From Nanobdellati archaeon (GTDB taxonomy: Archaea; EX4484-52; WAPT01), in assembly GCA_015520605.1 (NCBI GenBank), contig WAPT01000024.1, forward strand, positions 12,645 to 76,644: 64,000 bases of DNA, written 5' to 3'. The number at the start of each line of letters is the position of its first letter. Positions within the stretch are counted from its first letter, which is position 1. This document shows, piece by piece, positions 9,234-42,021 of this stretch. A program made the translations under genes and the position numbers. The notes below the pieces were generated by a model that did no database searches, was not told the DNA's origin, and saw only the letters and a program-made list of their open reading frames with translations.

Positions 9234-9600
9234 AAAATATTAAGTTATGGTTTTGGTTCAGGAACTGATACTTAGTCACTGAAAAATTCAGGCACTAAAA
9301 GACTTTGAATTCAAAACCTTGGATGGCTTCTGGAAAATTTTTGACCTTTTGCATTGGATTTGAATGTGGTTCGGAGTCTGACACAATGTGTCAAATTTAA
9401 AAAATTTGCATATAATACAGTGATGTTAGCTAATTTTGCATTTTATTGCTTTTATGGTAAAAGGGCACCAGTCAATTGGTGGTTGGGGGCACCTTCACCA
9501 AAATATTTAAATCTTATTATTTTCATGATAACAAATCTCCTCCTGTAGGGATTAGTTGCCCCATTGGTGGAAGCACATTCCATCTTAAAATCCCCAATAT

Positions 9601-10611
9601 GTGGTTGAAATGTCAAGTAGATACCACCCGAGAAGAGGATCTCTCCAGTACTCTCCAAGAGTGAGAGCCAAAAGGATCTACCCGAGGGTAAGGCATGTTC
9701 CTGTGGTTGAAGGCAAGAATGTTGTGGAGTTTGCAGGCTATAAGGTTGGGATGCTCCAAGTGGATTATATTGAGAAGAGAAAAAATAGGTTCACCAATAG
9801 AGAGGTTGTGGAGCCTGCAACGTTAATAGAAGCTCCCCCGCTCAAGGTTCTTGCCGCTAGGTTCTACGAAAAGACTCCTTATGGTTCCAGAACAGTAACG
9901 GAGCTCTGGAGCGATAAAATAGAGAATAATGTGGCGAGGAAGATAACTGGAATAAAGCCCAACAAGGATAAAGATAGCGTTCTGGACAAGATAAAGGAAG
10001 GGTTCGATAAAATAAAGCTGATCGTGGCAACACAGCCGAAGCTGGCAGGAATAGGAAAGAAGGCACCAGAGGTATTTGAGATTCACTATTTCCCCACAAC
10101 CCCTCTCCCTTCTGAGCCTTCTTCTGATAACTCCTCCCAACTCCTCGATGAGATTTCCTCTCTTCTTGGCAACGAAATCTGCGTGGGTGATGTTTTCGCT
10201 CCCGGTGTTTTTGTTGATGTTATAACCGTTACCAAAGGTAAAGGCTTTCAGGGTTCCGTTAAGAGGTTCGGTGTGAAGCTACTCTCCCACAAAGCGAGAA
10301 AGATCAGGAGGAAAGCAGGAACTCTCGGTCCGTGGCACCCTGCAAAGACCAGATGGACCGTGCCGCAGACGGGTCAGATGGGTTTCCACACGAGAACCGA
10401 GTTCAATAAGTGGGTTATAGAAGTTGGAGATGAACCTTCTCGTGTTTCTAAATCTGGTGGGTGGAAGCACTACGGTGTTGTGAAATCCGATTACATCATC
10501 CTTCACGGCTCGGTTCCCGGCCCGTCAAAGAGACTGATAAGGTTAAGATATGCAATAAGGTGCCATGAGCCCCCAACAGAAGCGCCCGAGATAAAGCAGC
10601 TTATATGGTGA
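9601..10611 (+). CDS. rpl3: Ribosomal protein uL3.
   Basis: The N-terminus (HPRRGSLQYSPRVRA) is typical of archaeal L3, and this is the first gene of the conserved L3-L4-L23-L2 operon. Confidence 0.95.
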   Translation: MVEMSSRYHPRRGSLQYSPRVRAKRIYPRVRHVPVVEGKNVVEFAGYKVGMLQVDYIEKRKNRFTNREVVEPATLIEAPPLKVLAARFYEKTPYGSRTVTELWSDKIENNVARKITGIKPNKDKDSVLDKIKEGFDKIKLIVATQPKLAGIGKKAPEVFEIHYFPTTPLPSEPSSDNSSQLLDEISSLLGNEICVGDVFAPGVFVDVITVTKGKGFQGSVKRFGVKLLSHKARKIRRKAGTLGPWHPAKTRWTVPQTGQMGFHTRTEFNKWVIEVGDEPSRVSKSGGWKHYGVVKSDYIILHGSVPGPSKRLIRLRYAIRCHEPPTEAPEIKQLIW

Positions 10612-28889: not shown

Positions 28890-29030
28890 GCAGGGGTGGC
28901 CGAGAGGTCAAAGGCGCCGGACTTAAGAGGCCTGTCATCCTGCTAAGAAATCCGGTGGGCGCAGGCCCGTCGTGGGTTCGAAGCACTCCTGCACGAGGCA
29001 GGAGTGTCGAGATTCCCACCCCCTGCACCA
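28890..29030 (+). tRNA. tRNA-Leu (anticodon TAA) with two putative introns: ~22 nt in the anticodon loop and ~31 nt in the T-loop.
   Basis: Acceptor GCAGGGG/CCCCTGC, discriminator A, encoded CCA. Anticodon stem CCGGA...TCCGG has loop CTTAAG interrupted by AGGCCTGTCATCCTGCTAAGAA. The long variable arm marks it as type II. The T-stem GTGGG/CCCAC encloses the loop TTCGA plus an inserted hairpin (CACTCCTGC-ACGAG-GCAGGAGTG) plus TT. Confidence 0.7.
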
Positions 29031-30593: not shown

Positions 30594-30667
30594 GCCCCCG
30601 TAGTCTAGTCAGGCAAGGATATCGGCCTCTCGAGCCGATGGCCCGGGTTCAAATCCCGGCGGGGGCA
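30594..30667 (+). tRNA. tRNA-Glu (anticodon CTC).
   Basis: Acceptor GCCCCCG/CGGGGGC, anticodon arm TCGGC-CTCTCGA-GCCGA, T-arm CCGGG-TTCAAAT-CCCGG. CCA is not encoded. Confidence 0.8.
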
Positions 30668-32451: not shown

Positions 32452-32455
32452 TTCT

Positions 32456-32531
32456 GGTGGACCGGCCGGGATTTGAACCCGGGGTCTCCGCCTTGCGAAG
32501 GCGGCGTCCTTCCAGGCTAGACTACCGGCCC
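32456..32531 (-). tRNA. tRNA-Ala (anticodon CGC).
   Basis: Minus-strand cloverleaf with acceptor GGGCCGG/CCGGTCC and the G3:U70 identity pair. Anticodon arm CCGCC-TTCGCAA-GGCGG, and an encoded CCA. Confidence 0.85.
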
Positions 32532-32658
32532 ATTGCGACAGGATTATGTGGTAGACTTTATTTAAATTTTTATTTTTAGAAAATAATCAGGAGAAATTTC
32601 CCATAAACAAAAAGAAAAATAAAAATGGAAAAATCATAGAAATTATTTTTATACTAGA

Positions 32659-32964
32659 TCAATCTTCGATGTAGTATGCGTAATAAAGAGTCTCCGCTTC
32701 ATCTGGCCTTAGTGGTGCGTTCCAGTCTTTGCTATCTATGATGTGCTTAAGAACAGCCCCTATAATTTCTTCAAGGTCGATAATATCCATACACGCTTTC
32801 CCTGAGTTTATCACTCCTGCTCTTTTCCCGTACTCCAACAGTTCTTGTATTTGTTCCCTAGACAATTCTACTAGAATCCCTATCCAGTCGAACCCCGGAA
32901 TTTTCTTTCTCCTACTTATCTCACCTTTTTCCATTTCCAGATCTCTTCCGCTCCCGACCATCAC
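32659..32964 (-). CDS. Hypothetical protein (101 aa).
   Basis: ORF-track protein only; it lies in an AT-rich, ORF-poor stretch. Confidence 0.35.
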   Translation of the reverse strand: MMVGSGRDLEMEKGEISRRKKIPGFDWIGILVELSREQIQELLEYGKRAGVINSGKACMDIIDLEEIIGAVLKHIIDSKDWNAPLRPDEAETLYYAYYIED

Positions 32965-33113
32965 CTCACCTCCCCAAACTCAACAATGACTTCTCCTTCG
33001 GGTTATGGTATATTCTACACACCACATATTCGTCTGTCTCACACAACTTCATTCCGGCTTTCGGACAACAACATCTAAACGGACACATTTCTTCACCTCC
33101 TTTCACAAAACCC

Positions 33114-33155
33114 GCGGCCGCCCGGACTCGAACCGGGAAAACACCTTTCGGCCGC
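33114..33155 (-). other. tRNA-like minihelix: a 7-bp acceptor-like stem directly joined through an 11-nt linker to a canonical T-arm, with no D or anticodon arms. Possibly a tRNA remnant, a split/half-tRNA-related element, or an integration-site relic.
   Basis: The minus strand reads GCGGCCG-AAAGGTGTTTT-CCCGG-TTCGAGT-CCGGG-CGGCCGC. The stems are perfectly complementary and the T-loop is of TTCRAnT type. Confidence 0.4.
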
Positions 33156-33305
33156 ATTTGGGACAAGCAGAAAGAGAAATACCGCTACCGATTTATCCCA
33201 TAAAATCCCCACAGACATTCGCATTATCTATCCTTATTCATTCTCATATCTGTTTTACAACAGAGAAGTAGGTAACTATGGAGAAGTAGGTAACTATGAA
33301 AAACT

Positions 33306-33773
33306 TTAAAGCTTTTTGATCCGCCTGGCTTTCGGTATGAGGTTTTTGATAAACCTTCCCTGCTTGAGCCCTATACCGAGAATGTGTTCCTTGTATTTTA
33401 AAATCACGTAACCATCTTCAGCATCGCACTCAATATCGTAGAGATTGAGGCCACAGAGAACATCGTGCACTTTACCCTCACTTACTTCTACAACATTTTT
33501 TGTTGCATGCATGCCGAACATCTGTGCACCGTTCGTTGTTAGCTTTATTCGTTCCTTCTTCTTCTCCCATCTTAGGAACAACATTCCCACAGCTTCTACA
33601 TTCAGACCGGAGAAGTTCTTATCCACAACATCCCTGTTTGTTATCCAGATTTTCCTTCCACTCTTGACAAAAACGTAGTCCTCGAAGAGTTCTTTCTTCA
33701 AACCAAATCTCTCCTCCAGATACTTCAACATTTCTCCCTTTTCCTCCTCACTCATTATTTTAAGCTTGCTCAT
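33306..33773 (-). CDS. PUA/pre-PUA-like small protein, encoded downstream of a NOL1/NOP2/Sun methyltransferase. It may be a split C-terminal domain.
   Basis: 155-aa protein. Its stop lies 6 nt before the start of the methyltransferase gene, and similar domains are fused to archaeal Trm4/NOL1 proteins. Confidence 0.5.
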   Translation of the reverse strand: MSKLKIMSEEEKGEMLKYLEERFGLKKELFEDYVFVKSGRKIWITNRDVVDKNFSGLNVEAVGMLFLRWEKKKERIKLTTNGAQMFGMHATKNVVEVSEGKVHDVLCGLNLYDIECDAEDGYVILKYKEHILGIGLKQGRFIKNLIPKARRIKKL

Positions 33774-41466: not shown

Positions 41467-41694
41467 TTAAAAATAAAAAATAATATAAAACTTATAGCCA
41501 TTTTCAAGCTTAACTTTTTCAAAACCAACTACATATCGTTTCCGTTTTTTTGAGAATATGCAGATTTCTGTCACATCCTCAAAGGCTATTGGTGTATGTT
41601 TCAGAATTTCCCTTATTCTTTTAGGTTCTTCATTCAGAGCCTTGCACGCATCCTCAAAACTCCACATCACAACCGGCTCTATCCCGTTCAACAC
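41467..41694 (-). CDS. Hypothetical small protein (75 aa).
   Basis: ORF track only. Confidence 0.35.
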   Translation of the reverse strand: MLNGIEPVVMWSFEDACKALNEEPKRIREILKHTPIAFEDVTEICIFSKKRKRYVVGFEKVKLENGYKFYIIFYF

Positions 41695-42021
41695 CCCACC
41701 CCCTCTTAGAACTAATTAGGATCCCGCGTCCCAACATTTTCAAGAAAACGGGTTTTTTACACCATAAATCAAGAAAGTAAACTTTAAGAGTGCTACTTGT
41801 AGTTCTCGATTTCCACCCACGACAAATGTCGAATGTTTTACTACCAAACTTGTATAACATTTTTAAGTGTGTGTTGGATTTTAACTATTATCAATCAAAA
41901 TAATGAAAAGTTCGAAAAATGGAATTCAGAAAATTAAAGGATGTCTGACGCATTCTTAGCGATGTTCATCCTTTCTTTCTGTCCCAACTCTCCTAGTAAT
42001 TCCGCGGCCCTTGGATTTTTA

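Follow-up and report, generated by a model that had tools for sequence, protein, structure and literature searches.

A tRNA-like minihelix upstream of small open reading frames in EX4484-52 archaea as a candidate t-element

What could a tRNA-like structure be for that consists of nothing but an acceptor stem and a T-arm? This question is raised by a stretch of 64,000 nucleotides from a Nanobdellati archaeon (contig WAPT01000024.1 of assembly GCA_015520605.1), which was analyzed as a whole and is called the window here. A first-pass annotation made from its letters alone had pointed out such a minihelix on the minus strand at positions 33114-33155, within about 770 bp separating tRNA-Ala from the next confident gene. 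The interval between the tRNA-Ala gene (ending at 32531) and the next gene (ending at 33306) measures 774 bp, and both the sequence and the RNAfold structure of the minihelix agreed with what had been reported. Three explanations had been offered, namely a relic of a tRNA gene disrupted by integration, a piece of a split or permuted tRNA, and a minihelix-type RNA, and the last one fitted best. The minihelix is neither a product of chance nor a decaying relic, and we see about an even chance that it is a tRNA-derived t-element, i.e., a signal in the mRNA leader of a small-gene module at which RNase P and tRNase Z would process the transcript.

Read from 33155 to 33114, the minus strand has the sequence GCGGCCG-AAAGGTGTTTT-CCCGG-TTCGAGT-CCGGG-CGGCCGC, which comprises a 7-bp acceptor stem (GCGGCCG/CGGCCGC), an 11-nt linker (AAAGGTGTTTT), a 5-bp T-stem (CCCGG/CCGGG), and a 7-nt T-loop (TTCGAGT). 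RNAfold returned exactly the coaxial structure of 7 and 5 bp. The continuous acceptor stem, the T-stem, and the T-loop with T54, C56, and A58 are thus features that the element shares with tRNAs; the D and anticodon arms as well as the anticodon are absent, and with them the cloverleaf. The discriminator position is occupied by G and CCA is not encoded. ARAGORN did not call the minihelix as a tRNA with or without introns. Rfam scans of the region and of the whole window, run with the gathering cutoffs and also with more lenient ones, returned nothing on 33114-33155, and the tRNA model (RF00005, gathering threshold 29 bits) had no match there even at E ≤ 10; their sole additional match was the sub-threshold tRNA at 28890-28993 described below. 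The T-arm motif CCSGGTKCRAKTCCSGG (≤ 1 mismatch) was found five times in the window, in four real tRNAs and in the minihelix, with 0.00 matches expected from shuffled sequences. The generic architecture of 7 and 5 bp with G:U pairs allowed occurred 18 times in the window and 10-22 times per shuffle. As this shape is frequent by chance, the significance of the element rests on the GC-rich version with its T-loop and on its conservation.

Six copies of the minihelix are known from three related species of the GTDB candidate phylum EX4484-52, each located near small open reading frames (ORFs). The sequences matching the window are contigs of vent-deposit metagenome-assembled genomes (MAGs; L006, L007), and a sister MAG, M10_metabat1_scaf2bin.076, which carries the NCBI label "Nanobdellati archaeon", was placed in the GTDB phylum EX4484-52 (tree, PMC9793634). 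A covariance model built from the six copies (R1) scored the window minihelix with 65.3 bits. In the alignment of the copies, 98.6% of the pair cells were kept as standard pairs, compared to 32-54% in shifted-register controls. Four pairs were changed on both sides, one in the T-stem (51:63, C:G to G:C) and three in the acceptor stem of L015_b, a copy from the related contig L015. G:U pairs were present in L001_1 and L005 (G4:U69) and in L015_b (G1:U72). They are valid solely on the ORF-sense strand and become A·C mismatches on the opposite strand, which argues for a structure constrained as RNA in the ORF-sense orientation. The T-loop residues T54, C56, and A58 persisted while the loop changed from TTCGAGT to TGCAATT. 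The linker varied between 11 and 15 nt and also in sequence, the flanks diverged too, the discriminator base was G, C, A, or T depending on the copy, and none of the copies encoded CCA. An acceptor stem of the tRNA-Gly type was present in five of the six copies, and that of L015_b had a completely different sequence. At the level of sequence comparison, these patterns show that the minihelix is an RNA structure under selection and that its reading direction is that of the ORFs.

The position of the copies relative to coding regions is similarly recurrent. The second copy of L001 is identical to the window minihelix in 41 of 42 nt, lies at a separate and unrelated locus, and is followed 27 nt downstream by a different ORF encoding a 102-amino-acid (aa) membrane protein. 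At four of five loci (window, L001 copy 2, L015_b, and L015_c), the copy is followed by a start codon after a spacer of 25-36 nt that includes a Shine-Dalgarno (SD) sequence, and the ORFs concerned are unrelated. When 176 kb of sequence were searched with model R1, nothing beyond its six founding copies was obtained, the remaining matches being the T-arms of real tRNAs. A pattern scan of IMG/VR gave no match for the minihelix, and one of JGI metagenomes gave two, both unrelated (a high-GC bacterial prophage tRNA cluster and a CRISPR array with a spacer matching a tRNA end). Within these searches, the minihelix appears to be restricted to a small lineage of EX4484-52. A similar acceptor and T-arm minihelix, GCGGCCG-CTGGATGCCTACG-GCGGG-TTCGATT-CCCGC-CGGCCGC, was observed on an unrelated high-GC bacterial prophage-like contig (L020, 4616-4659, minus strand; 30 bits with R1), where an ordinary tRNA-Gly(UCC) follows about 100 nt downstream of it.

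The origin of the minihelix became apparent from its genomic neighborhood. The genes are arranged in the order NOL1/NOP2-type methyltransferase, PUA-domain protein, variable slot, tRNA-Ala(CGC), and, on the opposite strand, Ogg, and the PUA-domain proteins are 75-95% identical across these species. In L011 and L023 the slot is empty and tRNA-Ala follows directly after the PUA gene. The slot of L001 contains a minihelix (with G4:U69 and a longer linker), a structured leader of about 110 nt, and a 99-aa homolog of the 100-aa protein encoded in the window. In L009, the slot harbors an intron-bearing tRNA-like gene, a full-length 77-nt tRNA-Gly(UCC)-like gene (41 bits with Rfam) that shares the acceptor stem, a leader, and a different ORF. 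L015 carries one full-length tRNA-like copy plus two minihelices: a full tRNA-Gly(UCC) (55.5 bits) with a 59-aa zinc-ribbon ORF starting about 31 nt downstream of it, a minihelix whose acceptor sequence differs, followed by a 100-aa membrane ORF and an intron-bearing tRNA-like gene, and a GCGGCCG minihelix followed by a 92-aa homolog of the window protein. Since the leader after the full-length gene of L009 aligns with the leader of L001, the L009 gene and the L001 minihelix are positional homologs. The minihelix is most likely a tRNA-Gly(UCC)-like gene cut down to its top half, in which the D and anticodon arms were replaced by the linker of 11-15 nt. The comparison with related genomes that had been proposed at the outset, aimed at an intact tRNA or an integrated element at this site, yielded the full-length genes of L009 and L015 and, in the gene tables of the flanking ±10 kb, no integrase.

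The full-length tRNA-Gly(UCC)-like genes (L009 6806-6882 and L015 5682-5752) have an A at position 33 (loops CAUCCAG and UAUCCAG) and do not encode CCA. In tRNAs, a U at position 33 is near-universal. It may be that these genes, too, are tRNA-like leaders and do not serve in decoding. L001 (9885-9990) and L009 (6883-7025) share a homologous structured leader that separates the tRNA-like element from the SD and has a conserved hairpin (GCGCCAG...CTGGCGC) directly 5' of the SD; this leader is not present in the window, where a 40-aa ORF is found instead.

The minihelix is part of a module that consists of a promoter-like region, a pyrimidine-rich leader, the minihelix, an SD-bearing spacer of about 25 nt, one or two small ORFs, and a T-rich, presumed terminator region (Table 1). 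The first-pass annotation had described the interval as A/T-rich with only weak ORFs, which was not borne out. With homologs in the L001 lineage (P0002, 76% identity) and in L015 (P0015, 37-43% identity) and a ratio of nonsynonymous to synonymous substitution rates (dN/dS) of 0.23 versus L001, the ORF at 32659-32961 is to be regarded as a conserved gene. The GC content is 0.44-0.49 across 32700-33300, only both edges being AT-rich, and GC content and skew across 32700-33100 agree with those of the neighboring minus-strand genes. A conserved protein gene across the interval had been named beforehand as an argument against the minihelix; such a gene is present, but it does not extend across the element. 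Homologs of the 100-aa protein were recovered from the same lineage only, be it by word index, by profile, or by HMMER run in full over 1.84 billion representatives, and viral contigs (IMG/VR) gave no match. Its AlphaFold2 model (predicted local distance difference test score 73) had no Foldseek match in the PDB, and comparison of the module ORFs with Pfam, NCBIfam, PHROGs, and PADLOC gave nothing significant.

Table 1. Features of the variable slot in the window and at its borders.
Feature	Position	Strand	Remarks
tRNA-Ala(CGC)	32455-32531	-	Downstream boundary of the variable slot
Module 3' end, presumed terminator region	32590-32630	-	T-rich run, then near-palindrome GGGAAATTTCTCC
100-aa orphan protein gene	32659-32961	-	Helical; starts 4 nt past the stop of the 40-aa ORF; own SD
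40-aa Cys-rich ORF (putatively coding)	32966-33088	-	MCPFRCCCPKAGMKLCETDEYVVCRIYHNPKEKSLLSLGR; ATG at 33088, strong SD upstream; ends 4 nt before the next start
25-nt spacer from minihelix to start codon	33089-33113	-	Predicted 5' untranslated region (UTR) of the processed mRNA; SD GGAGGTGA at 33093-33100
tRNA-like minihelix (putative t-element)	33114-33155	-	Supported by sequence, fold, six homologous copies, and covariance model
Pyrimidine-rich 5' leader	33156-33180	-	ATTTCTCTTTCTGCTTGTCCCAAAT; directly precedes the minihelix; shows conservation in the L001 copies
Promoter-like upstream region (inferred function)	33191-33262	-	Blocks TGTTGTAAAACAG (33250-33262) and GGGGATTTTATGGGATAAAT (33191-33210) conserved in the window and L001 copies 1 and 2
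Tandem duplication	33263-33298		Perfect, 18 bp x 2; GAGAAGTAGGTAACTATG; lies 7 nt past the PUA-domain gene's stop codon

A 66-aa ORF overlapping the minihelix (32966-33166) had been regarded as a probable artefact. This is probably correct for the 26 N-terminal codons over the minihelix, whereas the last 40 codons are preceded by an SD and form the 40-aa ORF listed in Table 1. This Cys-rich ORF is confined to the window lineage, L001 having the structured leader in its place, and is therefore regarded as putatively coding. Diverged direct repeats of leader and SD sequence (GTTTTGTGAAAGGAGGTGA and GTTTGGGGAGGTGAGGTGA) lie on either side of it. The 3' motif (T-rich/GGGAAATTTnTCC) was also found past the module ORFs of L001, L009, and L015, and not in the empty slots of L011 and L023. 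A search for the 3' palindrome and the promoter-like motif elsewhere in the window gave no further convincing modules. Downstream of tRNA-Pro(CGG), a 75-aa orphan ORF (41467-41860, minus strand) is preceded by GATTTATGGTGTAAAAAA, which resembles the promoter-like motif, and has no minihelix; in the counterpart of this region in L001, downstream of HypE, minihelix copy 2 is found instead. A reading of the minihelix itself as a terminator (GC hairpin followed by TTTT) was rejected because the T-run is not kept in the other copies.

How might the minihelix act in such a module? In the reading that we favor, the whole module would be transcribed as one unit from the promoter-like region upstream of the minihelix, and the minihelix would be recognized by the enzymes that process tRNA ends. 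RNase P would remove the 5' leader upstream of it and tRNase Z would cut after the discriminator base, which would free a minihelix of about 42 nt and leave an mRNA with a defined, SD-bearing 5' UTR of about 24 nt. The part retained in the reduction would be exactly what these enzymes need. Because the spacer of 25-36 nt is occupied by the SD in four copies and offers no space for a promoter of its own, the ORFs must presumably be transcribed from upstream of the minihelix; in the window, the 25-nt spacer leaves no room for a TATA box between minihelix and start codon. The full-length tRNA-like relatives and the recurrence before unrelated small ORFs also count for a t-element, and the variable discriminator and the lack of an encoded CCA argue against a role in aminoacylation and are compatible with one in processing. 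The CCA-adding enzyme as well as RNase P and tRNase Z accept minihelices of acceptor stem and T-arm as minimal substrates (PMC3714273). Pre-tRNAs from which the D, anticodon, or T arm is missing are cut by archaeal RNase Z just past the discriminator, provided that their 5' end is mature (PMC7479834). As judged by covariation and by these minimal substrates, the minihelix has the fold of acceptor stem and T-arm expected of a t-element (PMC3714273, PMC7479834). In Haloferax, as far as described in PMC4326828, and in plant mitochondria (PMC1920247), t-elements define RNA ends. Together with the minimal substrates and the cleavage of arm-deleted pre-tRNAs, these precedents favor the t-element.

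Several points weigh against this reading. Co-transcription and cleavage are steps that we infer, and the promoter assignment is weak, a canonical TATA box being absent. The genes for RNase P RNA and tRNase Z were not seen within the 64-kb window. In L001 copy 1 and in L009, the element is located 110-150 nt from the start codon with extra hairpins in between, so that a fixed short UTR is not universal. The known set comprises six copies from only three species, some of them closely related, and a structured 5' stem could act as a plain stabilizer that stays uncleaved.

The last point leads to the alternatives. That the GC-rich helix is an uncleaved 5' structural element, which guards the mRNA from 5'→3' decay at high temperature or modulates translation by pairing of leader and SD, appears rather unlikely to us. 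Its constant place in the 5' leader near the SD would suit such a role, and for three out of four copies the minimum-free-energy fold had the SD/AUG region base-paired to the pyrimidine-rich leader. However, this pairing was no better than that of composition-matched shuffled leaders (fractions 0.16-0.83), and a plain hairpin requires neither a 7-nt loop of the T-loop type with T54, C56, and A58, nor the exact tRNA geometry of 7 and 5 bp, nor descent from a full tRNA. There is only a slim chance that the excised top half is itself the product, a stand-alone RNA to which CCA and perhaps an amino acid would be added or which would bind a protein by mimicking tRNA, with the ORFs merely sharing its promoter. 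Some aminoacyl-tRNA synthetases accept minihelices, and the prevalence of the tRNA-Gly-type acceptor stem would be in line with this. Acceptance by the CCA-adding enzyme (PMC3714273) also speaks for it. The discriminator that changes from copy to copy and the wholly different acceptor sequence of L015_b nevertheless indicate that identity elements are not conserved and that the shape alone is kept. A neutral relic, i.e., a tRNA-Gly pseudogene whose middle was deleted and which serves no function today, is improbable as well. It would explain why tRNA finders miss the element, why relatives have a full-length version, and why the surrounding region is variable. Yet compensatory changes maintain both helices across species in which the PUA proteins are 75-95% and the 100-aa proteins only 43-76% identical, linker and flanks diverge freely around the intact helices, and several paralogous copies exist, each upstream of an ORF. 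The relic of an integration-disrupted tRNA gene considered in the first-pass annotation was right in that the element is derived from a tRNA, as seen in L009 and L015, but the compensatory changes, the lack of a 3' repeat of any tRNA in the window, and the absence of an integrase from the gene tables within ±10 kb speak against its being a leftover of integration.

A role at the DNA level is unlikely. The minihelix would then be a recombination (attachment, att) site of mobile small-gene cassettes beside tRNA genes, and its RNA structure would be incidental or secondary. This would account for a slot that is empty in L011 and L023 but occupied by differing modules, between one and three in number, in the window, L001, L009, and L015, for the nearly identical minihelix before another ORF at the second L001 locus, for the location of orphan small ORFs next to tRNA genes, which are classic integration targets, and for the diverged leader/SD repeats around the 40-aa ORF. 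On the other side, the gene tables list no integrase or transposase within ±10 kb (those of L001, L006, L009, and L011 were inspected for integrase), target-site duplications were not identified, IMG/VR contains no match for the minihelix or the 100-aa protein, the minihelix does not duplicate the 3' portion of any intact tRNA next to it, and the strand-specific G:U pairs point to RNA. A bolder combination, distinctly unlikely in our view, would make the minihelix the signature of mobile small-gene cassettes of a novel type in EX4484-52. Its hairpin would serve both as recombination site and as RNA-processing signal, the excised and possibly CCA-tagged top half would have a function of its own, and self-contained modules of promoter, tRNA top half, SD-ORF, and terminator palindrome would have spread to hot spots beside tRNA genes. 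Least credible, and very improbable, is the piece of a split, tri-split, or permuted tRNA that would be completed by trans-splicing with a separate fragment carrying the D and anticodon arms. The lineage is rich in non-canonical tRNA introns, as exemplified by the T-loop intron of tRNA-Ala in L009, L011, L015, and L023, and a tri-split tRNA-Gly exists in Caldivirga. In the minihelix, however, both acceptor strands are contiguous within one unit of 42 nt, the linker is variable in sequence and length and unable to form a bulge-helix-bulge (BHB), and the discriminator varies. Furthermore, the window contains no partial tRNA matches able to supply the middle and no complement of the linker beyond chance.

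The tandem duplication noted at 33268-33300 as 16 bp in length is real, but its size and place had to be corrected, since it is a perfect repeat of 18 bp (Table 1). The 18-mer is single-copy in the sister species (L001 lineage), which makes the duplication specific to the window lineage. Two adjacent copies are present both in the NCBI contig L007 and in an independent Logan read assembly (L008), whereas the ENA scaffold L006 has a gap of 100 N exactly between the copies (9582-9681, corresponding to about 33280 of the window). The gap in one assembly and the direct joining in independent ones suggest assembly trouble or a copy-number polymorphism. Nothing lies between the copies or is flanked by them and there was no sign of a transposition footprint, so that the earlier idea of an insertion or excision scar was abandoned. 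The simplest reading is that the duplication arose by slippage and is possibly polymorphic.

Several other tRNA-related features were observed in these genomes. L009 (6686-6794) and L015 (6610-6738) contain a tRNA-like gene whose acceptor stem and T-arm are those of tRNA-Glu (GCCCCCG.../CGGGGGC) and which has an insert of 30-57 nt; for this gene, ARAGORN with introns gave the inconsistent calls Arg-TCT and Gly-GCC. The non-canonical T-loop intron of tRNA-Ala(CGC) is about 22-94 nt long and differs in length between the genomes (L009 7793-7960, L011 6511-6622, L015 7236-7350, and L023 1514-1620); the orthologs of the window and L001 are free of introns. At 28890-28993 on the plus strand of the window, a sub-threshold Rfam tRNA match (25.3 bits) was obtained. 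Its variable arm is long and its anticodon loop has some 25 additional nt, and it probably represents a type-II (Leu-like), intron-containing tRNA overlooked by ARAGORN. The tRNA-Glu of the window (30594-30667, plus strand) has the anticodon CTC, whereas the ortholog of the sister species has TTC (L001 12284-12357).

If the processing model holds, the minihelix would be a natural top half of a tRNA that is kept by selection purely as a handle on mRNAs for the enzymes that process tRNA ends, and the range of archaeal t-elements, one rRNA case in haloarchaea, would widen to include the protein-coding genes of a deep lineage that is uncultivated. The relatives represent a stepwise reduction series from a full tRNA-like gene via the minihelix to a minihelix with a different acceptor sequence, which, again provided that the processing model is true, points to the part of a tRNA that is sufficient in vivo. 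For annotation it is relevant that such minihelices escape tRNA finders and Rfam and provoke spurious ORF calls such as the 66-aa ORF. The repeated modules of promoter, minihelix, and ORF also mark hot spots of gene content in these genomes.

Among the known systems closest to the minihelix is tRNA-Gly(UCC), with which it shares the acceptor stem GCGGCCG/CGGCCGC, the T-arm geometry, and, in L009 and L015, the homologous position. The split and tri-split tRNAs of Nanoarchaeum equitans and Caldivirga maquilingensis are likewise fragmentary tRNA-like genes of hyperthermophilic archaea with unusual tRNA gene structures, but in the case of the minihelix the separate halves, the complementary GC-rich flanks, and the BHB motif are all missing, and the window contains no partner fragment. 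Partial copies of tRNAs that integrated archaeal elements leave at att sites resemble it as tRNA-like fragments in a variable region adjoining tRNA genes; an att relic, however, repeats the target tRNA's 3' part in direct orientation and lacks the 5' acceptor strand, whereas the minihelix possesses both strands with compensatory pairing, and its T-arm and acceptor sequence differs from those of all five tRNAs in the window. The mascRNA/MEN-beta RNAs (RF01684) correspond to the function proposed here, as their tRNA-like fold is a cleavage signal for RNase P and RNase Z on a non-tRNA transcript, but they are located at the 3' ends of eukaryotic long non-coding RNAs, and their model gave no match to the minihelix at E ≤ 10 and only weak matches to the real tRNAs of the window. 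In archaea, a tRNA-like structure 5' of the 5S rRNA of Haloferax volcanii was reportedly described by Hölzle et al. in 2008 and 2012. According to the description available in PMC4326828, this t-element is also a tRNA-like structure inside a longer precursor, and its processing by tRNase Z and RNase P sets the 5' end of the downstream RNA, as is predicted for the minihelix. Measured against that description, the minihelix differs in lying upstream of protein-coding ORFs instead of an rRNA, in consisting of acceptor stem and T-arm only, in being present in several copies per genome, and in traveling with variable orphan genes. The t-elements of plant mitochondria, which were found via the T-arm motif GGTTCRANYCC, are tRNA-like and located upstream of mRNAs whose 5' ends are made by RNase Z, as was demonstrated experimentally for cox1 (Forner et al., 2007; PMC1920247). 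They differ from the minihelix in being organellar, in having non-canonical cloverleaf rather than two-arm shapes, and in lacking modular repeats. Compared to the known t-elements, the new aspects would be a bare two-arm minihelix, its position upstream of protein genes, its multiple copies, and its being part of a repeated module.

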